The notes under the pieces: model-generated
Told to the model about the DNA's origin: nothing
Seen by the model: the letters and a program-made list of their open reading frames with translations, nothing else
The model's database searches: none
Assembly: GCA_965221905.1 (NCBI GenBank)
Contig: OZ244922.1
Location: 2,944,001-3,008,000, forward strand
Origin: Chloroflexota bacterium
GTDB lineage: Bacteria; Chloroflexota; UBA11872; VXOZ01
Direction: 5' to 3'
DNA: 64,000 nt
In this document: piece after piece, positions 11,806 through 22,870 of the stretch
How the letters are laid out: every line of letters begins with the position of its first letter
Numbering within the stretch: the first letter of the stretch is position 1
Translations under genes and position numbers: made by a program

Positions 11806-12408
11806 ATGAAGACAATCGCCATGGATGGGAAACGCACGACCATGCTAGGCCCCCGCAGCGGAGACGACACTCCCCGTTCAGAACTCATGCCGGCAAGAAC
11901 ACGCACACACTTCGTGACAATCTCGGTCGCACTGTTGCTCGCTGCGCTGCTGCTCCATTTGGCGCCGGCTATCACCGGAGCGGCAAGTATCGACGAACAG
12001 ACCGTGGCAGTTGCCAAGCAGCTCAAGTGTCCGGTCTGCCAGAATGTGCCGGTTGCATACTCCCAGTCACAATTGGCAGGTGAGATGCGCCTGGTCATTC
12101 GCGAAAAGCTAGCAAACGGCGAGAGCGAAGAAGCGATCATCCAGTACTTCGTAGACCGCTACGGCGAGGATGTGCTGCTTGAACCCCGCCGCGAGGGCTT
12201 CAGTCTCTTGTTGTGGGTTGCGTCCATTGGAGTGGTGGTCTTTGGCGCCGCCGTCGTCGGCATCGTGCTCTGGAACTGGAGTCAAGCCCGACCGGTATCA
12301 ACGACTGCTTCCGCAATGCCGACCGACTCACCAAAAGCGCCGTCCGGCAAGCTGGAGCAACTCTTCGAAGAGGAGTACGCACGGTACAAGCAGGACAAGC
12401 GCACATGA
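11806..12408 (+). CDS. ccmH: Cytochrome c biogenesis protein CcmH (start may be ATG 11887)
   Basis: LKCPVCQ motif, S...A..MR..I and FVDRYGE.VLL.P, followed by a TM helix. Confidence 0.9.
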   Translation: MKTIAMDGKRTTMLGPRSGDDTPRSELMPARTRTHFVTISVALLLAALLLHLAPAITGAASIDEQTVAVAKQLKCPVCQNVPVAYSQSQLAGEMRLVIREKLANGESEEAIIQYFVDRYGEDVLLEPRREGFSLLLWVASIGVVVFGAAVVGIVLWNWSQARPVSTTASAMPTDSPKAPSGKLEQLFEEEYARYKQDKRT

Positions 12409-13712
12409 GCGTGATCGTCTTTGGGAGCGTGTTCGGTGTGGCTGCCCTGATATGGATTGTGTGGCCTCTGGTAGGGCGCAGAGGCGCCTCCACCACACTT
12501 TCGGCAGGCGGCGTCCGCGATGACCTCGCCGAACGCACCTTGCTGCTCTATCAAGAGCTCGAGGAAATCGACCTCGAGCACGAGCAAGGCGATCTCACGG
12601 CAGACGAGTACGAGTCCTTACGCGCGGCGCAGAAGCAACGCGTCCTCAGCGTGCTCGAGGAGAGGCAGAGCGAAGAGGGCGCTCTCAGTGACGCCGCGGG
12701 ACTAGATGAAGCCAGCGCGCTCAGCTACGCCATCGAGGAAGATATCCTGCGCATACGCGCCCGGCGGCGGGGACAACAGCATGTTCCGGCCGACCAAGTG
12801 GCTGTGGATCCAGCTTCGGCTTCCTCCATGTCGAAGGGCGTGCATTGGCTCTGGATAGCGGTACCCGCAGCCCTCGTACTCATCGCTTTCGGCGTTATCT
12901 TTCAGCTCTATCGTTCGTCCTCCCGCACGCTTACCGAGCAGACGCCAATTGCACAGATTGACGCAGCGGGGCTCGTGGGGTTTGCCTTCCTTGCTCCCGA
13001 TCACGTTTTGTTGGCTCAAACGTCCGGTCTGTTGGAAAGCCGCGATGGGGGACGCGCGTGGACTCAAAGCGCACTGGATGTTGCGCCCGCCGCCATGGCA
13101 GTATCTCCTTCCGGTGAAGGCTACGCCTATGTATTCACAGAGAGCAGTATCCACGTCACGGCCGATTCGGGACAAACTTGGCAGGAAGTTCAAGGCACGT
13201 TGCCCAGCGCGCAGATTCTTGCCGCAGCGGTGAATGCTTTCGCTCCTACGGAAATCTACGCGAGCTTCGCCGAGAGCGGTTTGTTCCGCTCGCGTGACGG
13301 GGGTAGATTTTGGGAACCGGTGGCAACGCCGGATGACGAGAAGATTGTGGCAATTCTCGTAAGCGGCATTACGCCGCTGCTATTCATTGCCTTAGAATCA
13401 GGCAGAGTGCAGGTGAGCAGCGATGAGGGAGAGACGTGGTCTGCCGCCAGCGGCGCAGTTACCATGGCGTTGCGGGGACCCGTTCGCGCACTGACCGGCG
13501 CATCGGACGGAAGCACGCTCTACGCTGCGGCCCACACCGGATTGTACCTTTCCACGTCAGCCGGGCAGACGTGGGTAGACCTGCCGCTGCGCAAACCGCT
13601 GGTCGCGGTGACGGTTGACCCAACGACCGCCCGCACTGTGCTCGCGGTGACGGAGATGGGAGAAGTCTATCGCAGCACCGACGGCGGCATTGCCTGGAGA
13701 AACGACCAGTGA
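12405..13712 (+). CDS. CcmI-like N-terminal membrane segment fused to a BNR/Asp-box beta-propeller
   Basis: ATGA overlap with ccmH; TM, LYQELEEIDLEHEQGDLTADEYESLR, second TM, then repeated SxDGGxxW Asp-boxes. Confidence 0.65.
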   Translation: MSVIVFGSVFGVAALIWIVWPLVGRRGASTTLSAGGVRDDLAERTLLLYQELEEIDLEHEQGDLTADEYESLRAAQKQRVLSVLEERQSEEGALSDAAGLDEASALSYAIEEDILRIRARRRGQQHVPADQVAVDPASASSMSKGVHWLWIAVPAALVLIAFGVIFQLYRSSSRTLTEQTPIAQIDAAGLVGFAFLAPDHVLLAQTSGLLESRDGGRAWTQSALDVAPAAMAVSPSGEGYAYVFTESSIHVTADSGQTWQEVQGTLPSAQILAAAVNAFAPTEIYASFAESGLFRSRDGGRFWEPVATPDDEKIVAILVSGITPLLFIALESGRVQVSSDEGETWSAASGAVTMALRGPVRALTGASDGSTLYAAAHTGLYLSTSAGQTWVDLPLRKPLVAVTVDPTTARTVLAVTEMGEVYRSTDGGIAWRNDQ

Positions 13713-15157
13713 CAGGCCAACATAGCCCGCATCCGAACCGTCACGCACCTTTTCTGTCATGCCCTTCACAACAGGAGCGATCCTGCGCGCCGACTCCGTC
13801 ATTCCCGCCACAACAGGAGCGCACTTGCACGCTGACTCCGTCATTCCCGCGAAAGCGGGAATCCATCTGCGGCAGCAGTGCGAGCGGCTCAACAACCGAA
13901 TGCATTACCGCCCCGCTCCAATTCTGGTCGCCAATATCTATTGCACTGTCATTGTTGCTCTGCATTCTCCTGACCCTCCTGATTCATTCCACGATCGCCG
14001 CAGCGGACGGCGTCATCAGCGGCACCGTCGTCAACGGCACTGCGGACGGCAGTGTACCGGCTGATGTAGCGGTGACCCTCTACTTCCTTCGCGATGGTGA
14101 AATCGTGGAACAACGCACGCAGGTCACCGGGCCTGAAGGCGCCTACCGTTTCTCCGACCTTCCCACCGATCCCATGCTGGGATTTGTGGTCGTGGCTGCC
14201 TATACGCAAGTTCCATACAACACGCCGGAGCTCAAGTTTACCGAGGGTACCGCGGTCCAAGCGCCCCCACTCATCGTGTTCGAGGCAAGCCAGGATGCGA
14301 GCGTGGTGCGGGTCGTCACTGACGTGCTGATCATTGCGCCGGGAGAAGAGAGTAGCGGCATGCTCAGCGTCATCGAGATAGTGCGGTTAGCCAATGATAG
14401 CGACCGCACATTCCTTGCCACCGGCGGTGCTGGCGCCGGAGCGCCGATGGACAGAGTGCTGCGGTTTGCCCTCCCCGTAGATGCACAAGACCTCACGATG
14501 CTGAGCGGCCTCAATGCGCAAAACGTCGTGCAGATCGATCGCGGTTTCGGCGTCTTCATGCCGTTGTTGCCGGGAGAGCGTGAAGTAATGTTTGGGTACC
14601 AACTGCCGTACTCCGGCAGCACGCTCAGTCTTACCAAGCGCACGGTGTACCCCACCGACCAATTTGCCATCCTTGCGCGTGAAGAGTATGGGCTGCGCTT
14701 CAACGCAGACCAGCTTGAGGTCCAAGCCGATCCGATTGGCGATCGCCGCTACCTGGTGGGGTCAACCAACTCGCTCGCCGCCCGCGCTGAGGTCTCGGTG
14801 CAAATTGCAGGTTTGCCCGCGCCCTCCATACGGGTGCGGCTTGAACGTCTATTTGATCGCGCGCGCGACACGCAGGCAGCTCTCTTCTTCCTGCTTGGCG
14901 TAGTCCTGATTCTGCCTGTCCTCTATGCGGTCTACCGCATGCGGGGCGGCCCGCGCCGCAGGGCCACAGCCACAGCGGCGGTTGCGACCGCTGTTCCGGC
15001 GGCTGGCGAGACGTTGCTCCTGGAGATCGCGCAACTAGATGACGAATTTGCGGCGGGTGGGATTGCCGCAGAGGAGTACCGGCGACTGCGCGCGGAAAAG
15101 AAGCAGCGTCTGATGGAAATCCATCGAGAACCAGGCAAAGAGACCGGCGATGAATGA
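13709..15157 (+). CDS. Membrane-anchored protein with a carboxypeptidase-regulatory-like beta domain and a C-terminal CcmI/SHOCT-like helix
   Basis: GTGA overlap with the upstream stop; hydrophobic signal; ISGTVVNGT..G.YRF..L; C-terminal TM, then EIAQLDDEFAAGGIAAEEYRRLR. Confidence 0.65.
   Translation: MTGQHSPHPNRHAPFLSCPSQQERSCAPTPSFPPQQERTCTLTPSFPRKRESICGSSASGSTTECITAPLQFWSPISIALSLLLCILLTLLIHSTIAAADGVISGTVVNGTADGSVPADVAVTLYFLRDGEIVEQRTQVTGPEGAYRFSDLPTDPMLGFVVVAAYTQVPYNTPELKFTEGTAVQAPPLIVFEASQDASVVRVVTDVLIIAPGEESSGMLSVIEIVRLANDSDRTFLATGGAGAGAPMDRVLRFALPVDAQDLTMLSGLNAQNVVQIDRGFGVFMPLLPGEREVMFGYQLPYSGSTLSLTKRTVYPTDQFAILAREEYGLRFNADQLEVQADPIGDRRYLVGSTNSLAARAEVSVQIAGLPAPSIRVRLERLFDRARDTQAALFFLLGVVLILPVLYAVYRMRGGPRRRATATAAVATAVPAAGETLLLEIAQLDDEFAAGGIAAEEYRRLRAEKKQRLMEIHREPGKETGDE
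13754..13866 (+). repeat. 42-bp-period tandem array of a CGTC-type REP-like element, within the 5' part of the CDS
   Basis: Units start at 13754, 13796 and 13838; the last is the intact ccgtcattcccgcgaaagcgggaatcc. Confidence 0.8.
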
Positions 15158-15887
15158 ACCTAAGTGCGCGGCACCGGACCTTGCCGTTGAGGCGAAGGGG
15201 CTGACCAAGCGCTACGGGTCCCACATTGCCCTGGATAACGTAGACCTCTCTGTGGGCTGTAACGAGCGCCTGGCGATTCTCGGGCCCAATGGCTCCGGGA
15301 AAACAACACTCATTGCGGTACTGAGCACAATCATGCGCGCTTCCGCAGGCGCGTTTCGCATCATGGGCTGGGACAGCGCAAATGCTTCGAACGAGGTGCG
15401 CCGACACGTCGGCGTCGTGGCGCACCGCACATATCTCTACGAGGAGCTTTCGGCGCGTGAGAACTTGCTCTTCTACGGCCGCCTCTACGGGGTGCCGAAC
15501 CTCGCGCAGCGTGTTGATGCGCTGCTGAAGTTGGTAGACATCTTTCCCCGTCGCCACGATCAAGTCGCCAATCTATCGCGCGGCATGCAGCAGCGTGTGG
15601 CGTTGGCGCGCGCCCTAGTCCACGATCCCGACGTGCTGCTGCTTGACGAGCCGGACACCGGCCTCGACCAAGAACACCTTGATCTCCTGGCTTCACTCGT
15701 GCAAGGCCGCGCTATCCCGGCCCGGACGGTTATCCTAACCACCCACAACTTAGACCGCGCGTTGGCCCTGTGCAATCGCGTGATGGTGCTCGCACAGGGG
15801 CGGCTGGTCTATCATGCCGAAAGCTCGACCCTCGATCACACTGCGCTGCACAACGCATACCGCCGCCTCGCAGGAGCAGCGCAATGA
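15150..15887 (+). CDS. ccmA: Heme ABC exporter ATP-binding protein CcmA
   Basis: Walker A GPNGSGKT, LSRGMQQR signature, LLLDEP; directly upstream of ccmB. Confidence 0.88.
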   Translation: MNEPKCAAPDLAVEAKGLTKRYGSHIALDNVDLSVGCNERLAILGPNGSGKTTLIAVLSTIMRASAGAFRIMGWDSANASNEVRRHVGVVAHRTYLYEELSARENLLFYGRLYGVPNLAQRVDALLKLVDIFPRRHDQVANLSRGMQQRVALARALVHDPDVLLLDEPDTGLDQEHLDLLASLVQGRAIPARTVILTTHNLDRALALCNRVMVLAQGRLVYHAESSTLDHTALHNAYRRLAGAAQ

Positions 15888-16552
15888 TGCTACCGGTGCA
15901 GCAAGTCCTCACGGTGGTTCGGAAAGACCTCTTGGTAGAGTCCCGCGCCCGCGACCTGCTCACCGTAATGCTTACCTTTGCAGTGCTAACGCTCATCATA
16001 TTCAACCTGGCCTTGGACCTACGGGGGCCAACGGTCCAAGAGATAGGGCCCGGACTGCTGTGGCTGACCATTACCTTCGCTGCCATCCTCGGCATGGGAC
16101 GCACGTTTGTGCGTGAGTACGAACGGGGAACGCTCGCCGGATTACTGCTTGCGCCGGTTGACCGGGGCACGCTCTTCGTTGCTAAGTTGCTGGCAAACCT
16201 CATTTTCCTCTTCATCATGGAAGCGGTCACCCTGCCCATGTTCGCCTTGCTCTTCAACCTGCCGGTGCTCCGACCGTCAGTGATTCTCATCACGGCCTTA
16301 GGCACGCTGGGCTTTGCTATCCTGGGCACAATCTTCTCTGCCATGGCAGCACACAGCAGGGCGCGCGAGGCATTGCTGCCGCTCCTGCTCTTGCCCACAA
16401 CGGTGCCCGTGCTTATTGGCTCAGTAAAAGCGACAACTAACGCGCTCAGCGGCACCGTGGACGGGACACCATGGATCGGCCTGCTGATCGCTTTCGACGT
16501 AATCTTTCTTACCCTTTCGTACCTCCTATTTGCACATGCAGTTGAAGGCTGA
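15884..16552 (+). CDS. ccmB: Heme exporter protein CcmB
   Basis: KDL..E.R, F.REYE.GTL.GLLL and LLPLLLLP..VP motifs; ATGA overlap. Confidence 0.92.
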   Translation: MMLPVQQVLTVVRKDLLVESRARDLLTVMLTFAVLTLIIFNLALDLRGPTVQEIGPGLLWLTITFAAILGMGRTFVREYERGTLAGLLLAPVDRGTLFVAKLLANLIFLFIMEAVTLPMFALLFNLPVLRPSVILITALGTLGFAILGTIFSAMAAHSRAREALLPLLLLPTTVPVLIGSVKATTNALSGTVDGTPWIGLLIAFDVIFLTLSYLLFAHAVEG

Positions 16553-16818
16553 TGTGAGCACTATTGTCGGAAGAGCATTAGGAAAACGTGTGTATACCCA
16601 GTGCCATACAGGGCTACGATTGCCTTCTTGGAATTGCTTCGCCTTTAGATCCGAGCGCCGAAAGAGGAGCAAGCGGCGTGAGCCAAACGTCGGCTTAGCT
16701 TTGCGCTATTTTTATAATGTGACCATCGGATTGCACGGGGGCAGCGCGCCGGCACGGTAGATGCGCGAAACAGTCCCAAGATCACACTAAGTAAGACTTT
16801 TATTTGGAAAGGACGTCG

Positions 16819-17523
16819 ATGTTGCTAAGCAATAATGCAGACGGCGCGCGGAGATGGATCGATGACCTCCTGGGCGTAGCCACGTTGATCGGCATGGTCG
16901 TGGCCCTTTGGCTCATATTTGTCTACACACCGGTTGAGCTCGTGCAGGGCGCGTCGCAGAAGATATTTTATATCCACCTGGCGTCAATATGGAACGCCTA
17001 CTTGAGCTTCTTCCTTGTTTTCGTGGCGAGCATCCTCTATCTCAGGCGGCCGACTTCCGGCAGAGACCGGTTCGCCCGCGCTTGGGCGGAAATTGGGGTG
17101 CTCTTCACTACGATCACGCTCATCAGCGGAGCAATTTGGGGCAAACCGATTTGGGGCACGTATTGGAGTTGGGACCCGCGTCTCACCACCACGCTCTTGC
17201 TTTGGCTCATCTACGTGGTCTATCTCATGCTGCGCGGATTCGTCGGCGACCCCGAACGCGGCAGGCGCTATGCGGCGATCGTTGGCATCATCGGCTTTAT
17301 TGACGTGCCAATTGTGCATATGTCCGTGCGTTGGTGGCGCACCTTGCACCCCGATCCCATCGTAGCCAGAGCGGAAGGCCCGGACCTACCCATGAGCATG
17401 TGGTACACCGTGCTCTACTGCATCGTCGTATTTACGGTGCTGGCGGTCTTCCTGGTGCGGCAACGCTTGCAGATCGACGAGCTACGAGAAACCCTAATTG
17501 ACCTACGTACGTCCGCAAGATGA
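16819..17523 (+). CDS. ccmC: Heme exporter protein CcmC
   Basis: IFYIH, WWD motif WGKPIWGTYWSWDPR, and PIVHMSVRWWRTLHP. Confidence 0.93.
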   Translation: MLLSNNADGARRWIDDLLGVATLIGMVVALWLIFVYTPVELVQGASQKIFYIHLASIWNAYLSFFLVFVASILYLRRPTSGRDRFARAWAEIGVLFTTITLISGAIWGKPIWGTYWSWDPRLTTTLLLWLIYVVYLMLRGFVGDPERGRRYAAIVGIIGFIDVPIVHMSVRWWRTLHPDPIVARAEGPDLPMSMWYTVLYCIVVFTVLAVFLVRQRLQIDELRETLIDLRTSAR

Positions 17524-17543
17524 ATGCACGAGGGAGCATCCGA

Positions 17544-17723
17544 ATGGAAACGATACAAAACTTTGACTACCTCTTCGCAGCATATGCCATTCTTTGGGTG
17601 GTGGTTTTCGGCTACTTCTTCTTCCTTACACGGCAGCTTGGCGAATTGCGGCGCGAGGTCAACGCGCTCCGCGAGGAACGCGCAAGCGGCGAATCCGGCC
17701 CGGACGCATCGCCAGACTCTTAG
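17544..17723 (+). CDS. ccmD: CcmD-like small membrane protein
   Basis: YLFAAY...W single TM with a charged tail, directly after ccmC. Confidence 0.75.
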   Translation: METIQNFDYLFAAYAILWVVVFGYFFFLTRQLGELRREVNALREERASGESGPDASPDS

Positions 17724-17814
17724 TCTCCGGCCCAAATAGGCAGCGCATCAACCTTTTGCGCTACCAGCGCGGCAGTGCCGAAGTGACACGTCGATTTGTT
17801 GGCACCTCCATGGG

Positions 17815-17836
17815 TGCATGGTATGCTATAAATAAT
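17815..17836 (+). promoter_or_regulatory. Possible extended -10 promoter for the ligase/aminomutase operon
   Basis: TGgTATGCT and TGcTATAAA in an AT-rich patch about 40-60 nt before ATG 17875. Confidence 0.4.
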
Positions 17837-17874: not shown

Positions 17875-19413
17875 ATGACGGAAGACGCACCAAGTACTGC
17901 TGCTAAAGCAGGTAGCCAAACTGCGGAATCGGAGAGTCGCGGGAGCCAAGAACGTAGTGCTCTTGCAAGCTCCCCCGCTTTGGATATGCTCACAGAGACC
18001 GACGCTCGTGCACGCAGTCTGGCCCTCAACGACCGTGTTCCCGCCAGCGGATTATTTGGCGAGGCAGACCGGCCCCTTATTGAGGGGTCTCGCGCTTCTT
18101 GGCGCATCGCGCCGGAGCCCTTCCTCATCAATCCCGATAGCTACCGGCGTCTACAGCAATTGGGGAACCAGCTACTTGCCTTCTACAGCGCCGCGAACCG
18201 CCTCTACCGCCGCAGCGTGCGTGGCACTATCCCACCGTTCTTCCACGAGTATCTCGATATCGGCAAGAGCGATACCGTAATCGACTACGGGCGTATGAAT
18301 CGCTTCCGTCGCGACCTGCCCGGTGTGATTCGGCCCGATCTTCTCCTGACAAATGACGGCGTTAAGGCTGCCGAACTGGATTCCATTCCCGGCGGCATCG
18401 GCCTTACTGGCAGCATGCAGCAGCACTACGATAGCTTGGGATTCTCGATGGTAGGGGGCGCGAACGGCATGGTGGAAGGCTTTGCCGCCATGATCCGCAG
18501 CCGAGCCGCGAAAGACGACCCACAGCTCGCCATAGCCGTTTCAGACGAGTCGGTGGACTACCGTCCTGAAATGCAGTGGCTGTCCGATCAATTGTGCGAG
18601 CTTGGCATGAGCAGCGCATGTGCCAAACCCGAAGAGATAGAGATGCACGGCGACTGTCTCATGCTCAATGGGCAGCCCGTCGACACGCTCTATCGCTTCT
18701 TCGAGCTCTTCGATCTCAAGAACATCCCGAACTACGATCTTCTTCTCTACGCCGCCCGCAAGCAACTCATCACCATGACGCCGCCGGTGAAGGCGTATCT
18801 CGAGGAGAAGCTCCTCTTTGCCCTCTTCCATCATCCCGTGCTGGCTGAATTCTGGAAGCAAGAGTTGGGGGCAAAGAACGTAGCGGCCCTGCAGCGAGTA
18901 ATACCGGAAACCTGGATCCTAGACCCGCGCCCGCTGCCGCCGCAAGCCGTCGTTCCCGGACTGAACATTGCCAAGCGACCGGTAACGAATTGGGGTCAAC
19001 TCAAGGGCTTGGGCCAATCCGACCGGCGGCTGGTTATCAAGCCTTCCGGCTTCTCGGCGACAGCCTGGGGCAGCCGCGGCGTCACCATCGGCCACGATCA
19101 CCCCGAAGCGGAGTGGGATGCAGCAGTGCAGAGTGCCCTCGACGCTTTCGCGACGACCCCCCACGTCTTACAAAAGTTCCACCACGGCAATCGGTACGGC
19201 ACCCGCTACTATGACTTTGCTCAAGACGCAGTGCGCAAGATGAACGGGCGCGTGCGCCTGAGCCCATATTACTTCGTGGCCAATGACGAAACGACGCTTG
19301 CCGGCATCCTCGTAACTATCGTGCCGGCGGACAAAAAACTTATCCATGGTATGGTTGACGCCGTGATGGTGCCTGCCGCCATCAGCGATAACGGTGTAGA
19401 CCTGGAACTATAG
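17875..19413 (+). CDS. Glutathionylspermidine-synthase-like (circularly permuted ATP-grasp) amide ligase, substrate unknown
   Basis: IRPDLLL...AELDSIPGG (RxD...ExD/N), LYRFFE, LVIKP..AWGSRGV Gly loop and VLQKF. Confidence 0.65.
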   Translation: MTEDAPSTAAKAGSQTAESESRGSQERSALASSPALDMLTETDARARSLALNDRVPASGLFGEADRPLIEGSRASWRIAPEPFLINPDSYRRLQQLGNQLLAFYSAANRLYRRSVRGTIPPFFHEYLDIGKSDTVIDYGRMNRFRRDLPGVIRPDLLLTNDGVKAAELDSIPGGIGLTGSMQQHYDSLGFSMVGGANGMVEGFAAMIRSRAAKDDPQLAIAVSDESVDYRPEMQWLSDQLCELGMSSACAKPEEIEMHGDCLMLNGQPVDTLYRFFELFDLKNIPNYDLLLYAARKQLITMTPPVKAYLEEKLLFALFHHPVLAEFWKQELGAKNVAALQRVIPETWILDPRPLPPQAVVPGLNIAKRPVTNWGQLKGLGQSDRRLVIKPSGFSATAWGSRGVTIGHDHPEAEWDAAVQSALDAFATTPHVLQKFHHGNRYGTRYYDFAQDAVRKMNGRVRLSPYYFVANDETTLAGILVTIVPADKKLIHGMVDAVMVPAAISDNGVDLEL

Positions 19414-19451
19414 AACGCCGATTAGGGGATTTGGGAGAATAAGGAATCGCA

Positions 19452-20624
19452 ATGGCACTATCGCAGACCGAAGTGAAACGAGAAAAAGATGAGTGGCAGG
19501 AATTGCTCGCGGCCGGCATTAACCGGCCGGAGAAGCTCATTACCGAGCTTGGCGAGCGGCTCGGCCTAGATGACGAAACGGCGGCCAGCCTTCACAAGAA
19601 CTTCCCGGTCAGGATCAACCCCTACTACCTCGGCCTAATTGATGAGGTCAACGACCCTATCTGGCGTCAGGCCATTCCCGATGAAATGGAACTCGACCAT
19701 AGCGATTCATTGACGACAATGGATCCGCTGGCTGAGGATATGGATTCGCCGGTGCCCTATCTGACGCACCGCTATCCCGATCGCGTGCTCATGGTCGTGC
19801 AATTGCAGTGCGCTATGTACTGCCGCTTCTGCACGCGCCGCCGCGAAGTGGGCAGCCGCAATGCCGTGACCAAGAACGATTGGGACCGCCAAATCGAGTA
19901 CATCGCTTCCAATCCCAAGGTACGCGATGTCATCATATCCGGCGGCGACCCTTTCATGCTGCTCGACCACCAAATCGACTATATTCTCAAAAACCTGCGG
20001 GCGATTCCGCACATGGAGATCATCCGCCTCGACTCCCGCATGCCCGTCACTCTGCCCCACCGCGTGACGGAGAACCTCTGCGAAATCATGCAACGCTATC
20101 ATCCGGTCTACCTGAACACGCATTTCAACCATCCGCGCGAGATCACGCCTGAATCCACCCGCGCGTGCGAACTGATGGCCGACCACGGCATCCCCTTGGG
20201 TAACCAGAGCGTGCTGCTGCGGGGTGTGAATGACGATGCGGAAGTGATGAAGGAGCTTGTACAGAAGCTCCTAGTGATTCGGGTCAAGCCGTACTACCTC
20301 TACCAGGCCGACTTGGTCACCGGTACCAGCCACTTCCGCACCTCCGTGGAGAAAGGCCTGGAAATCATCAAGGCGATTCAGGGCCACACCAGCGGCATGG
20401 CTGTCCCGCATTTCGTGATCGATGCGCCGCAAGGCGGCGGCAAAATTCCCGTGACGCCCGATTTCATCCAGGAAATCACCGACGACGAGATCGTGCTGAA
20501 GAATTACGAAGGCAACGTCTACCGCTATCCGATTGACTCCGAGGTGCCGAACGCACAGGAAACGAAGCTATCCCAGGCGCAGACCAACGGCAAGGGCAAC
20601 GGCACAGCTACCGAAACCACTTAA
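19452..20624 (+). CDS. kamA: KamA family radical SAM/PLP lysine 2,3-aminomutase
   Basis: THRYPDR, CAMYCRFC, SGGDP, HFNHP, NQSVLL.GVND, PYYLYQAD and PLP lysine in DAPQGGGK. Confidence 0.9.
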   Translation: MALSQTEVKREKDEWQELLAAGINRPEKLITELGERLGLDDETAASLHKNFPVRINPYYLGLIDEVNDPIWRQAIPDEMELDHSDSLTTMDPLAEDMDSPVPYLTHRYPDRVLMVVQLQCAMYCRFCTRRREVGSRNAVTKNDWDRQIEYIASNPKVRDVIISGGDPFMLLDHQIDYILKNLRAIPHMEIIRLDSRMPVTLPHRVTENLCEIMQRYHPVYLNTHFNHPREITPESTRACELMADHGIPLGNQSVLLRGVNDDAEVMKELVQKLLVIRVKPYYLYQADLVTGTSHFRTSVEKGLEIIKAIQGHTSGMAVPHFVIDAPQGGGKIPVTPDFIQEITDDEIVLKNYEGNVYRYPIDSEVPNAQETKLSQAQTNGKGNGTATETT

Positions 20625-20691
20625 CGGCCGTGTGACTAGGCAGTATTGCCTACCCCAGGTGCGTTGAATCCCCGATAGAGGATCACACCTC

Positions 20692-21744
20692 GTGAATCCC
20701 CCTCTTCGCATCGCCGCCGTCGGATTAGAGCACGACGAGATTTACCGCGTGCTCGACCGGCTGCGCCGACATGAGACTGCCGACTTGGTAGCCATCGCCG
20801 AACGCAGCGGGAGACTCCGTATGGCGGCGGCAGGTCGGTATCGTGTGCCGGTCTTCCCGCGCCTCACGCCGCTCTTGGCCGAAACTGCTGTAGATGCTGT
20901 CATCGTGGCTACGGCCAATGGCGATAAGGCGGCGGCCATCCAGGAAGCCATGCGCGCCGGCAAGCACGTTATCGCCCACGCACCGTGCACGCTAACTCTG
21001 GAGCAAGTAGCCGCTGTAAAAGAGGCGCAAACCGCGTTAGGCAGCGGCTTGGTCTTGCTGCATCCTCTGCGCTTCACACCGGTATACGTGCACTTACGGG
21101 ATGCGATTGCTCAGGGACTGCTGGGCGCCATTTGCCAGGCCGTAGTCATCAACTCGCAGAAGGTCACGGCCACACCTCGTACCCAGGCGTTCTATGCGAC
21201 GCACACGCACGGCGGCGTGCTGACCAATCTTGCCGTCCACGACCTTGACGTGCTGCGCTGGCTCGGCGGAGATCTGACCGTAACCGCCGCCGCTACACAG
21301 CGACACGGCCTCACCGAGCACCCGGACTTCGAAGATGCGGGCCTAGTCCATTGTGCGTTCAATTCTGGCGGTACGGGTGTGGTGGCGTGCAATTGGCTCG
21401 CGCCGGACGCGGGGGCCCCATTCCAAGAACTAACGTTGATCGGCACTGAAGGCACGGCGTGGATCAGCGGCGGCAAGTTGCACGCGTTGGGAGCAAATGA
21501 CCGATCGTCTCTGACGAACGAGCCGCAAAGCAGTGGATACTTGGCGACCCAAGATGAGTCCGGTCGCGCCTTTCCTCCAACTTCCGCTGCCAAAGCCGAC
21601 TACGATGTTGCCGCGGCCATGCTCGACGCGGCTATTCAATCTCTCAGCGATGCCGACTTGAGGCAAGTTGCCACCGCCGATGCATTCCGCACGTCTAGCG
21701 TGGCCGTGCAGGCCCAGCACATCGCGTGGCAGGACCGTGCGTGA
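20692..21744 (+). CDS. Gfo/Idh/MocA family oxidoreductase-like protein with degenerate motifs
   Basis: LRIAAVG, DAVIVAT, AGKHV and GG.L.NLAVHDLD; the usual EKP reads HAP. Confidence 0.75.
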   Translation: MNPPLRIAAVGLEHDEIYRVLDRLRRHETADLVAIAERSGRLRMAAAGRYRVPVFPRLTPLLAETAVDAVIVATANGDKAAAIQEAMRAGKHVIAHAPCTLTLEQVAAVKEAQTALGSGLVLLHPLRFTPVYVHLRDAIAQGLLGAICQAVVINSQKVTATPRTQAFYATHTHGGVLTNLAVHDLDVLRWLGGDLTVTAAATQRHGLTEHPDFEDAGLVHCAFNSGGTGVVACNWLAPDAGAPFQELTLIGTEGTAWISGGKLHALGANDRSSLTNEPQSSGYLATQDESGRAFPPTSAAKADYDVAAAMLDAAIQSLSDADLRQVATADAFRTSSVAVQAQHIAWQDRA

Positions 21745-22600
21745 CGTGAATGCAACCGGCCAAGCCGCACCAACGTTCCTCACCATCGGCCATGCCTCGC
21801 GGGATCTCATGCCCGGCGGCTGGCGCTGGGGCGGCACGGTGACCTACGCCGCACTGCTTGCGCGCACCTGGGGAGTGTCAGCCGCTGTGCTCACAGCCCT
21901 CGCACCGGAAGACGAGCCTCTCTATCAGGCGTTCCTCGGCAGTGACGTGATGCTGCACACGCTCCCATCCAAGAACACAACGTCGATGGCGAACGAATAT
22001 ACCGCTGCGGGACGCCGGCAGCAGCTCGCCGCCAAAGCCTCGAAGATTCACCCCCGCCACGTGCCTACAGCTTGGCGCGACACGCCCATCGTGCTCGTCG
22101 CGCCTCTCTTCGGTGAGGTATCGACGCAATTTGGCGGGTCTTTCCCCCAAGGGTCGCTCGTCGGCATGACCATCCAAGGTCGCCTGCGCAGTCACCGCAA
22201 GGGCCGCATCTATTCCCGCCGCTGGCACCGCGCCGAGCAGGAATTTTCTGCCTACGATATAATCTTCTTCTCCGAAGAAGATGTGCGCGGCAATGCTGAA
22301 CTTGCCGAATACTACGCCTCGCTTGTCCCGCTGGCAGTAATGACCCAGGGTGACTCCGGCGCAACCGTCTTCGTACAAGGCCGAGCTGTGCAACACGCCG
22401 CCTTTCCGGCCCAGCCCGTGGACGCTACCGGCGCGGGCGACGTGTTTGCGGCTGCATTTCTGCTCCACTATGCGGAGAACCGTGATCCGACAGCCGCCTG
22501 TCGCTACGCGAATGCCGCCGCCGCGTGCAGCATCGAGCACGCCGGCGCGAGTAGTATTCCCACACACCGGCAAGTGGCCGCACGGCTGCGCTCTGCGTGA
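21737..22600 (+). CDS. PfkB family carbohydrate kinase
   Basis: IGH...D..GGTVTYAA and DATGAGDVFAAAF motifs; overlaps the upstream stop. Confidence 0.88.
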   Translation: MRDVNATGQAAPTFLTIGHASRDLMPGGWRWGGTVTYAALLARTWGVSAAVLTALAPEDEPLYQAFLGSDVMLHTLPSKNTTSMANEYTAAGRRQQLAAKASKIHPRHVPTAWRDTPIVLVAPLFGEVSTQFGGSFPQGSLVGMTIQGRLRSHRKGRIYSRRWHRAEQEFSAYDIIFFSEEDVRGNAELAEYYASLVPLAVMTQGDSGATVFVQGRAVQHAAFPAQPVDATGAGDVFAAAFLLHYAENRDPTAACRYANAAAACSIEHAGASSIPTHRQVAARLRSA

Positions 22601-22687
22601 AGTATGTAATTGGCGTAAAAAGCCGTTCACCGCTGCACACTGCATCCACTGACTATACGCTGGCCTCCCTTTATGTAAATCCAAGAG

Positions 22688-22870
22688 GCGGGGAACAAGC
22701 CCCCGCGCTACGGCGTTTCTTGTCCCCTCTCCATTGAGGGAGAGGGTTAGGGTGAGGGTGAGGGGGAAATGCTAGTCTTGCCGCACCCACGTGAGCAAGA
22801 TAATTTCAAGCAATGCTTTCTTGGACATCGCTCTCTCTCCAGATGTGCGCAGGTTGCAAACCTGCGCTAC
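22688..22870. repeat. Cluster of three different REP-like palindromes
   Basis: gcggggaacaagcccccgcgctac (22688, GTAG type on the minus strand); cccctctcc..ggagagggttagggtgaggg (22724); gtgcgcaggttgcaaacctgcgctac (22845, GTAG type). Confidence 0.7.

Follow-up and report, generated by a model that had tools for sequence, protein, structure and literature searches.

A candidate beta-lysine ligation module: an ATP-grasp-fold protein of an unannotated family linked to KamA-family aminomutases in several bacterial phyla

The beta-lysine made by lysine 2,3-aminomutases of the KamA family has four known fates: modification of elongation factor P (EF-P), an acetylated osmolyte, fermentation, and antibiotics assembled by nonribosomal peptide synthetases (NRPS). 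In the EpmB/EpmA (YjeK/PoxA) system, a short KamA-type aminomutase is combined with EpmA, which is a paralog of class II lysyl-tRNA synthetase and works through an adenylate. In the AblA/AblB system, which makes the osmolyte N-epsilon-acetyl-beta-lysine, a two-gene unit encodes a lysine 2,3-aminomutase (AblA) and an acetyl-CoA-dependent acetyltransferase of the GNAT type (AblB). Pyrrolysine biosynthesis (PylB/PylC/PylD) likewise pairs a radical S-adenosylmethionine (SAM) lysine mutase with an ATP-grasp amide ligase that acts after it; PylB lies outside the KamA family, and PylC belongs to the D-Ala-D-Ala-ligase type of ATP-grasp enzymes. Here we analyzed a 64,000-nucleotide stretch of a Chloroflexota genome (contig OZ244922.1, positions 2,944,001 to 3,008,000), referred to below as the window, in which a KamA-family gene lies immediately downstream of an open reading frame (ORF) that would encode a ligase of a different kind.

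The window contains four co-directional ORFs at 17875-22600. As described in the initial annotation of this DNA, they are separated by 38 bp and 67 bp and then overlap by 8 bp if ORF4 starts at the GTG at 21737. ORF1 (17875-19413, forward strand; 512 amino acids [aa]) is predicted to be an ADP-forming amide ligase with a glutathione (GSH)-synthetase/GspS-type ATP-grasp fold, and ORF2 (19452-20624, forward strand; 390 aa) encodes a KamA-family lysine 2,3-aminomutase that depends on radical SAM and pyridoxal phosphate (PLP) and appears to be a short form without a zinc site. Like EpmB/EpmA, this pair combines a short KamA-type aminomutase with an ATP-dependent ligase that would amide-link beta-lysine, and like AblA/AblB it is a two-gene unit of a lysine 2,3-aminomutase and a would-be beta-lysine-conjugating enzyme. 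It differs from both in the conjugating enzyme, since the putative ATP-dependent ligase ORF1 has an ATP-grasp fold, whereas EpmA is related to lysyl-tRNA synthetase and AblB is an acetyltransferase. ORF2, moreover, scores below the model cut-offs for EpmB and AblA and, unlike AblA, lacks the C-terminal zinc-site cysteines. No EpmA was found in the genome, and the EF-P loop tip is Arg across the class. The pair is a new variant on the known theme of KamA plus a conjugating enzyme, in a large unannotated family.

Predicted fold of ORF1 and family of ORF2

The homologs of ORF1 form a large and well-conserved group. More than 5585 cluster representatives matched at E ≤ 0.001, a lower bound because the count was taken among 8000 scored candidates; those listed are all "hypothetical" and carry no Pfam domain, and ORF1 itself matched no NCBIfam family. 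In an alignment of 20 sequences from several phyla, identity is approximately 50% across phyla and many residues are invariant. Among these are the motifs that the initial annotation had read as RxD...ExD, KP, and a Gly-rich loop: R153-P-D155, E167-L-D169, K389-P390, and the Gly-rich stretch at 391-403 are unchanged in all 20 sequences. The RxD...ExD residues may be equivalent to R316, D318, E330, and N332 of GspS.

An AlphaFold model of ORF1 built from the same alignment had a pLDDT of 85.0 and a pTM of 0.87, with only residues 1-35, which are lineage specific, disordered. The invariant motifs map to a predicted strand pair (151-169) and a strand (386-390). Searched with Foldseek, the model matched the (homo)glutathione synthetases of human, potato, soybean, and yeast, the fungal enzyme Cp1B, the structure 3n6x, E. 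coli YjfC/YgiC, GspS, and trypanothione synthetase (TryS), with E values of 6e-17 to 3e-8 overall and a probability of 1.0. An independent all-against-all comparison with VIA-align gave Z scores of 25.2 for YgiC, 24.6 for Cp1B, 23.6 for GspS, and 21.7 for TryS, but only approximately 8 for the classical ATP-grasp enzymes GshB, RimK, and Ddl. The matches at Z of 21 to 25, which include the GSH synthetases, extend over 336 to 418 residues at 10 to 15% identity, and leads from a language-model atlas pointed to the same ligase families.

ORF1 thus resembles GspS/TryS, YgiC/YjfC, the eukaryotic (homo)GSH synthetases, and Cp1B in its fold over nearly the whole protein; it also has an RxD...ExD strand pair, a KP motif, and a Gly-rich loop, which may correspond to theirs. 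These proteins are ADP-forming acid-amine ligases, from which ORF1 differs in its low identity and in having no amidase domain. All of the characterized structural matches are small-molecule acid-amine ligases; Cp1B is described as the ATP-grasp enzyme that forms an amide bond in the E-64 pathway (PMC12568646). In the predicted model, the fold of ORF1 is of the eukaryotic GSH-synthetase/GspS (circularly permuted) ATP-grasp type, and the structure comparisons bear out the class to which the initial annotation had assigned it from motifs.

ORF2 is the sole KamA-family gene in the genome. It exceeded the cut-off of the KamA family model TIGR00238 (328.7 bits; cut-off, 199.2) and fell below those of the more specific models, the best-scoring equivalog being that for AblA/clostridial lysine 2,3-aminomutase (TIGR03820; 471.7 bits; cut-off, 525.4), ahead of EpmB (TIGR03821; 260 bits; cut-off, 369.3). 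ORF2 aligned to the lysine 2,3-aminomutase of Clostridium subterminale (2A5H) with an E value of 1.5e-119. The CxxxCxxC motif (C120/C124/C127) and the PLP lysine (K331) reported in the initial annotation are both in place, and the equivalents of D293, D330, and K337 of 2A5H are present (in "YQADL," "VIDAP," and "GGGK," respectively). We take D293 and D330 of 2A5H to be the Asp pair that holds the epsilon-ammonium group of lysine and K337 to be the PLP lysine. The CxxxCxxC motif, both Asp residues, and the PLP lysine are kept in 35 of the 35 ORF1-linked KamA homologs that cover those columns. The position of the zinc ligand Cys268 is occupied by Asp in 33 of 37 KamA sequences, and the tails that follow the PLP lysine are 26 to 84 aa long with zero to two Cys residues, so that the C-terminal zinc-site cysteines are wanting. 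Because the lysine-binding residues are kept, Cys268 is replaced by Asp, and the tails are short and poor in Cys, the sequence places ORF2 among lysine-type aminomutases, in a short form that has no zinc site.

Linkage and co-occurrence of ORF1 and KamA

Linkage of ORF1 homologs to kamA in other genomes, a check proposed in the initial annotation, was borne out. We examined the best 80 of 589 confirmed genome loci and dropped four with less than 1.5 kb of downstream DNA, leaving 76 assessable loci. In 36 of them, kamA followed the ORF1 homolog directly and in the same orientation: 27/27 loci in Nitrospirota, 3/3 in Chloroflexota, 2/2 in Armatimonadota, 3/5 in Bacillota, and 1/1 unclassified. 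No downstream kamA was seen in Poribacteria (0/23), Latescibacterota (0/10), Gemmatimonadota (0/1), Sericytochromatia (0/1), Dormibacterota (0/1), or Eremiobacterota (0/2). When 1019 flanking ORFs were clustered without bias, KamA was the sole tightly placed neighbor common to several phyla. Since it recurs in four phyla, the juxtaposition of ORF1 and KamA is far beyond chance. Within Chloroflexota, the two genes form a lone two-gene unit in a sister family, with the flanking genes on the opposite strand, and in a third family kamA lies 10 to 16 kb from ORF1 on the other strand.

Co-occurrence extends beyond adjacency. In a sample of 401 Chloroflexota genomes, ORF1 was present in 45, which belong without exception to three families of a single class, and KamA was found in 45/45 ORF1-bearing genomes compared with 99/356 genomes without ORF1 (a figure that includes the unpublished genome G232). 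In the class to which the window belongs, 59 of 61 genomes carry ORF1. In 81 genomes of the Poribacteria phylum, ORF1 was present in 76, and KamA accompanied it in 76/76 compared with 2/5 of the remainder; these KamA proteins are 56 to 60% identical to ORF2 even though their genes are unlinked to ORF1 and lie elsewhere on the chromosome. In 101 genomes of a Latescibacterota-type phylum, ORF1 was present in 83, and a KamA-family gene was found in 82/83 compared with 12/18 genomes without ORF1.

RNA data are consistent with a transcribed ORF1-kamA unit whose downstream neighbors vary by strain. Metatranscriptome contigs from two studies that match the window at 90 to 97% identity, and hence derive from relatives, cover ORF1 and kamA, and one RNA-library contig of 1449 nucleotides bridges the junction of the two genes (18535-19979). 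Several such contigs cease to match the window at 20603, immediately ahead of the kamA stop codon, and run on into unlike sequence. The region of ORF3 and ORF4 is represented only by short, low-depth pieces, a pattern not readable as lower expression. RNA-library contigs cannot prove a single transcript, and carry-over of DNA is possible.

The two genes that follow kamA are not part of this pattern. ORF3 (20692-21744, forward strand; 350 aa) encodes a GFO/IDH/MocA-family protein with matches to PF22725 and PF01408 above the cut-offs. Its match to the N-terminal domain begins at profile position 16, and the nucleotide-binding motif there appears degenerate: by eye, "AAVGLEHDE" stands in place of GxGxxG and "VIAHAPC" in place of the EKP lysine. 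ORF3 may not be a canonical NAD(P) dehydrogenase. ORF4 (21737-22600, forward strand; open frame from 21668, with the in-frame GTG at 21737) encodes a PfkB-family sugar/nucleoside-type kinase that matched PF00294 with 74.2 bits over residues 209-297 only, the C-terminal part; "DATGAGD" is present, and NCBIfam matches were weak. Both genes stand beside the ORF1-KamA pair in only 3 of the 80 loci (L001, L002, and L046, all in the genus-level group of the window) and are missing from 73 of the 76 assessable loci and from all six further Chloroflexota loci. In other families of the class, PfkB orthologs (35 to 43% identity) were found with a GFO-like gene, ORF1, or KamA within approximately 5 kb in none of seven cases. 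In L002, a 1.5-kb insert (12763-14287) separates kamA from the GFO-like gene; it holds small ORFs of 85, 141, and 117 aa. What is conserved is the pair of ORF1 and KamA rather than a set of four genes. ORF3 is probably not part of the conserved module, and ORF3 and ORF4 are a local, genus-specific gene pair that is dispensable for it. This corrects the earlier four-gene reading by placing the sugar-type genes outside the unit. The proposed parallel with the mutase-ligase-dehydrogenase logic of PylBCD also falls away at its last step: the dehydrogenase-type gene here is not conserved with the ORF1-KamA pair.

Proposed function and alternatives

The initial annotation had recognized no known KamA partner in the window, and a search of the whole genome, a single 3.52-Mb contig that is 99.6% complete, extended this to most of the described routes. 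No EpmA was found, the best match to the EpmA model being a 522-aa lysyl-tRNA synthetase below the cut-off. AblB, BKACE, and NRPS condensation domains were likewise not found in this genome, and lysine fermentation as the role of KamA was set aside on the lack of BKACE. A search for KamD gave no match, but control genomes for KamD gave none either, so this part of the search was uninformative. The loop tip of the single EF-P gene (L085:1492-2055, reverse strand), a check proposed in the initial annotation, reads KMGRGG, so that Arg stands at the position of the modified Lys of E. coli EF-P. Arg occupies the tip (K-[MIV]-G-R-G) in 30/30 loci from five families of the class (L160-L188 among them), and KPGKG occurs in five other ORF1-bearing genomes, from five phyla. 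Searches of the genome for gamma-glutamylcysteine ligase (GCS2 and GshA) and for bacterial GshB found none of them, which makes a glutathione-type acid substrate for ORF1 unlikely, and a glutathione-analogue product was set aside on the same grounds. The open-access literature, to which our search extended, held nothing relevant on an aminomutase or beta-lysine together with an ATP-grasp or amide ligase, nor on an aminomutase in Nitrospira or Poribacteria or together with glutathionylspermidine.

We lean toward a two-gene module in which ORF1, as an ADP-forming amide ligase, would use beta-lysine to form a conjugate that is probably a small molecule. ORF2 would convert L-lysine to beta-lysine by radical-SAM/PLP chemistry. 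By analogy with characterized members of the fold, ORF1 would then activate a carboxylate as an acyl phosphate, converting ATP to ADP and Pi, and join it to an amine. Beta-lysine would be one of its two substrates, and the amide formed from it would most likely be a small molecule. Linkage and co-occurrence are what point to beta-lysine as a substrate of ORF1, and its role there would be that of amine donor or of activated acid. Homoglutathione synthetase accepts beta-alanine, and GspS and TryS accept polyamines. Because the fold can thus take beta-amino acids and long cationic amines, beta-lysine is a plausible amine donor, and activation of its carboxylate is equally possible. We suggest more tentatively that the product could be an undescribed metabolite that contains beta-lysine and serves, for example, as a compatible solute, in a redox or cofactor-like role, or as a building block of the envelope; it would be near-universal in Poribacteria, the Latescibacterota-type phylum, Nitrospirota, and one class of Chloroflexota. 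ORF1 would in that case be the founder of a new functional family among ligases of the GSH-synthetase fold.

Several observations weigh against this proposal. ORF1 had no Pfam match even at E ≤ 10, including to GSP_synth, GSH_synth_ATP, and CP_ATPgrasp (PF03738, PF03917, PF04174, and PF14403 were covered); neither phmmer nor a profile search found anything among PDB sequences, and hhalign of ORF1 against E. coli Gss gave a probability of 0.2%. Because these sequence searches were negative, the predicted kinship of ORF1 to characterized ligases is at the level of the fold only, and ORF1 is in this sense the founder of its own family. No fused or longer forms of ORF1 (897 to 2560 aa) were found, which is weak evidence. 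KamA is not adjacent to ORF1 in 40 of the 76 loci. KamA-family genes are common in any case, and the genomes within each sample are related, so that the co-occurrence ratios overstate independence. One ORF1-bearing genome in the Latescibacterota-type sample, G477, showed no KamA. In the other ORF1-bearing genomes of that sample, KamA is mostly a divergent form of approximately 460 aa that is 34 to 39% identical to ORF2, and this form is also the only KamA-family gene in single genomes of Gemmatimonadota, Dormibacterota, and Eremiobacterota. Its scores stay below all equivalog cut-offs, and its gene lies in housekeeping surroundings; examples on the reverse strand are L087:1288-2676, L149:8369-9796, and L153:8089-9450, beside RNase Y, Dxr, UPF0182, or an Lrp regulator. 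The divergent form nevertheless appears to track the presence of ORF1 in the Latescibacterota-type sample, a split that was noticed post hoc.

The most serious competing explanation, though an unlikely one, is that ORF1 is a housekeeping enzyme unrelated to beta-lysine, ligating, for example, a different amino acid, a polyamine, or the precursor of a cofactor, with its adjacency to KamA reflecting shared regulation or lysine metabolism. The family is near-universal in whole lineages (59/61, 83/101, and 76/81 genomes) and strongly conserved between phyla, its other neighbors vary with the phylum, and half of the loci have no adjacent KamA. Tight same-strand adjacency in four phyla, and near-perfect co-occurrence even where the genes lie megabases apart, are difficult to reconcile with such independence. 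A rather improbable reading, and the one proposed in the initial annotation, is that ligase, KamA, GFO-like protein, and PfkB kinase act together in this genus, for example, to make a beta-lysyl sugar or cyclitol phosphate conjugate. The co-directional arrangement with its short gaps and overlap, uninterrupted by any terminator-like site on the forward strand, would fit such a pathway, as would the retention of the gene order in L001, L002, and L046 and the presence of PfkB within a few kilobases of kamA in genomes of the genus. However, the arrangement is limited to that one genus, PfkB orthologs elsewhere in the class are unlinked, the L002 insert interrupts the series, the RNA contigs of relatives diverge before the kamA stop, and by eye neither GxGxxG nor the EKP lysine is seen in the GFO-like protein.

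Two further alternatives concern what KamA acts on and where beta-lysine goes. The order of steps could be reversed, the ligase making a lysine conjugate on which the KamA-family enzyme then migrates the amino group. This would accord with linked KamA proteins that fall under every equivalog cut-off and form a short clade without the zinc site, and with the position of ORF1 upstream of kamA. We consider it improbable given the conserved residues for the epsilon-ammonium group of free lysine, the conserved PLP lysine, and the strong match to 2A5H, an enzyme that acts on free lysine. Least probable is a protein-modification system, in the EF-P version of which the ATP-grasp ligase takes the place of EpmA and attaches beta-lysine to EF-P. 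KamA here is short and without a zinc site, presumably as in EpmB; EpmA is missing; some ORF1-bearing genomes do have the KPGKG tip; and the distribution of ORF1 is housekeeping-like. Nevertheless, the characterized structural relatives of ORF1 all act on small molecules, and because the EF-P tip is Arg throughout the class while ORF1 is present in 59 of 61 genomes there, EF-P beta-lysylation is unlikely as the conserved function of the module.

If the preferred reading of a two-gene beta-lysine ligation module is correct, it would add a fifth fate of beta-lysine, reached by a different ligase chemistry. A large block of "hypothetical proteins," a family without a Pfam or NCBIfam model and with more than 5,500 cluster representatives, gains a concrete hypothesis, and this family is present in most genomes of whole phyla known mainly from metagenomes.

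Other neighbors of ORF1 homologs and flanking features of the window

The genes that accompany ORF1 homologs outside the window's class differ among phyla. In Nitrospirota, the ORF1 homolog is separated from kamA by a gene for a glutaredoxin/GST-N-like protein of approximately 100 aa (L063:11466-11804, L048:11374-11685, and 11 more loci), and in 20 loci the gene after kamA encodes a tandem-domain dCTP deaminase. In Latescibacterota and Gemmatimonadota, a gene for a LarE-type ATP-dependent sulfur transferase begins within the ORF1 homolog or a few bases after its stop codon (4-bp overlap; L014:11410-12288, L032:11444-12532, and six more loci), with 314 to 322 bits against TIGR00268 (cut-off, 150). 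A peptide deformylase gene follows LarE in these phyla, and neither LarB nor LarC was seen nearby. The glutaredoxin-like and LarE neighbors leave room for a product that bears a thiol or thioacid. In Poribacteria, a PhyH-family Fe/2-oxoglutarate dioxygenase gene lies directly downstream of the ORF1 homolog (L003:11450-12286 and 11 more loci), with weak matches to ectoine hydroxylase and halogenases, and serA lies upstream.

In the window, ORF1 follows a cytochrome c maturation cluster that, with two preceding genes, extends over 12213-17723. The preceding genes encode a BNR/Ycf48-like protein with a CcmI-like N terminus (12213-13712) and a 482-aa protein without a family match (13709-15157); the cluster comprises ccmA (15150-15887), ccmB (15770-16552), ccmC (16804-17523), and a small CcmD-like ORF (17546-17723) that ends it. 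Between this region and ORF1, 48 bp upstream of the ORF1 ATG, lies the extended -10-like site noted in the initial annotation. The pattern itself is present: a sigma-70-like arrangement at 17799-17827 on the forward strand, with TTGGCA, a 17-nucleotide spacer, and TATGCT preceded by TG, matches 9 of 12 consensus positions. Because such sites are no more common in this region than in shuffled sequence (2 found compared with 2.4 ± 1.5), we regard it as a pattern match only. No terminator-like site was detected on the forward strand inside the four-gene cluster.

Rfam gave no match in the window, and on six related loci it returned a single tRNA and neither a lysine riboswitch nor another leader; ARAGORN found no tRNA in the window. 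A gene for RqcH/NFACT lies downstream of the four-gene cluster. The intergenic segment 3' of the PfkB gene (22683-22770), included in the Rfam search, contains a GC hairpin as well as an inverted repeat, CCCCTCTCC...GGGAGAGGG, after which comes the G-rich GGTTAGGGTGAGGGTGAGGGGG. A core of approximately 35 nucleotides in this segment is common to many unrelated RNA-library contigs, with a summed depth of up to about 11950, which suggests that it is a widespread repeat motif.

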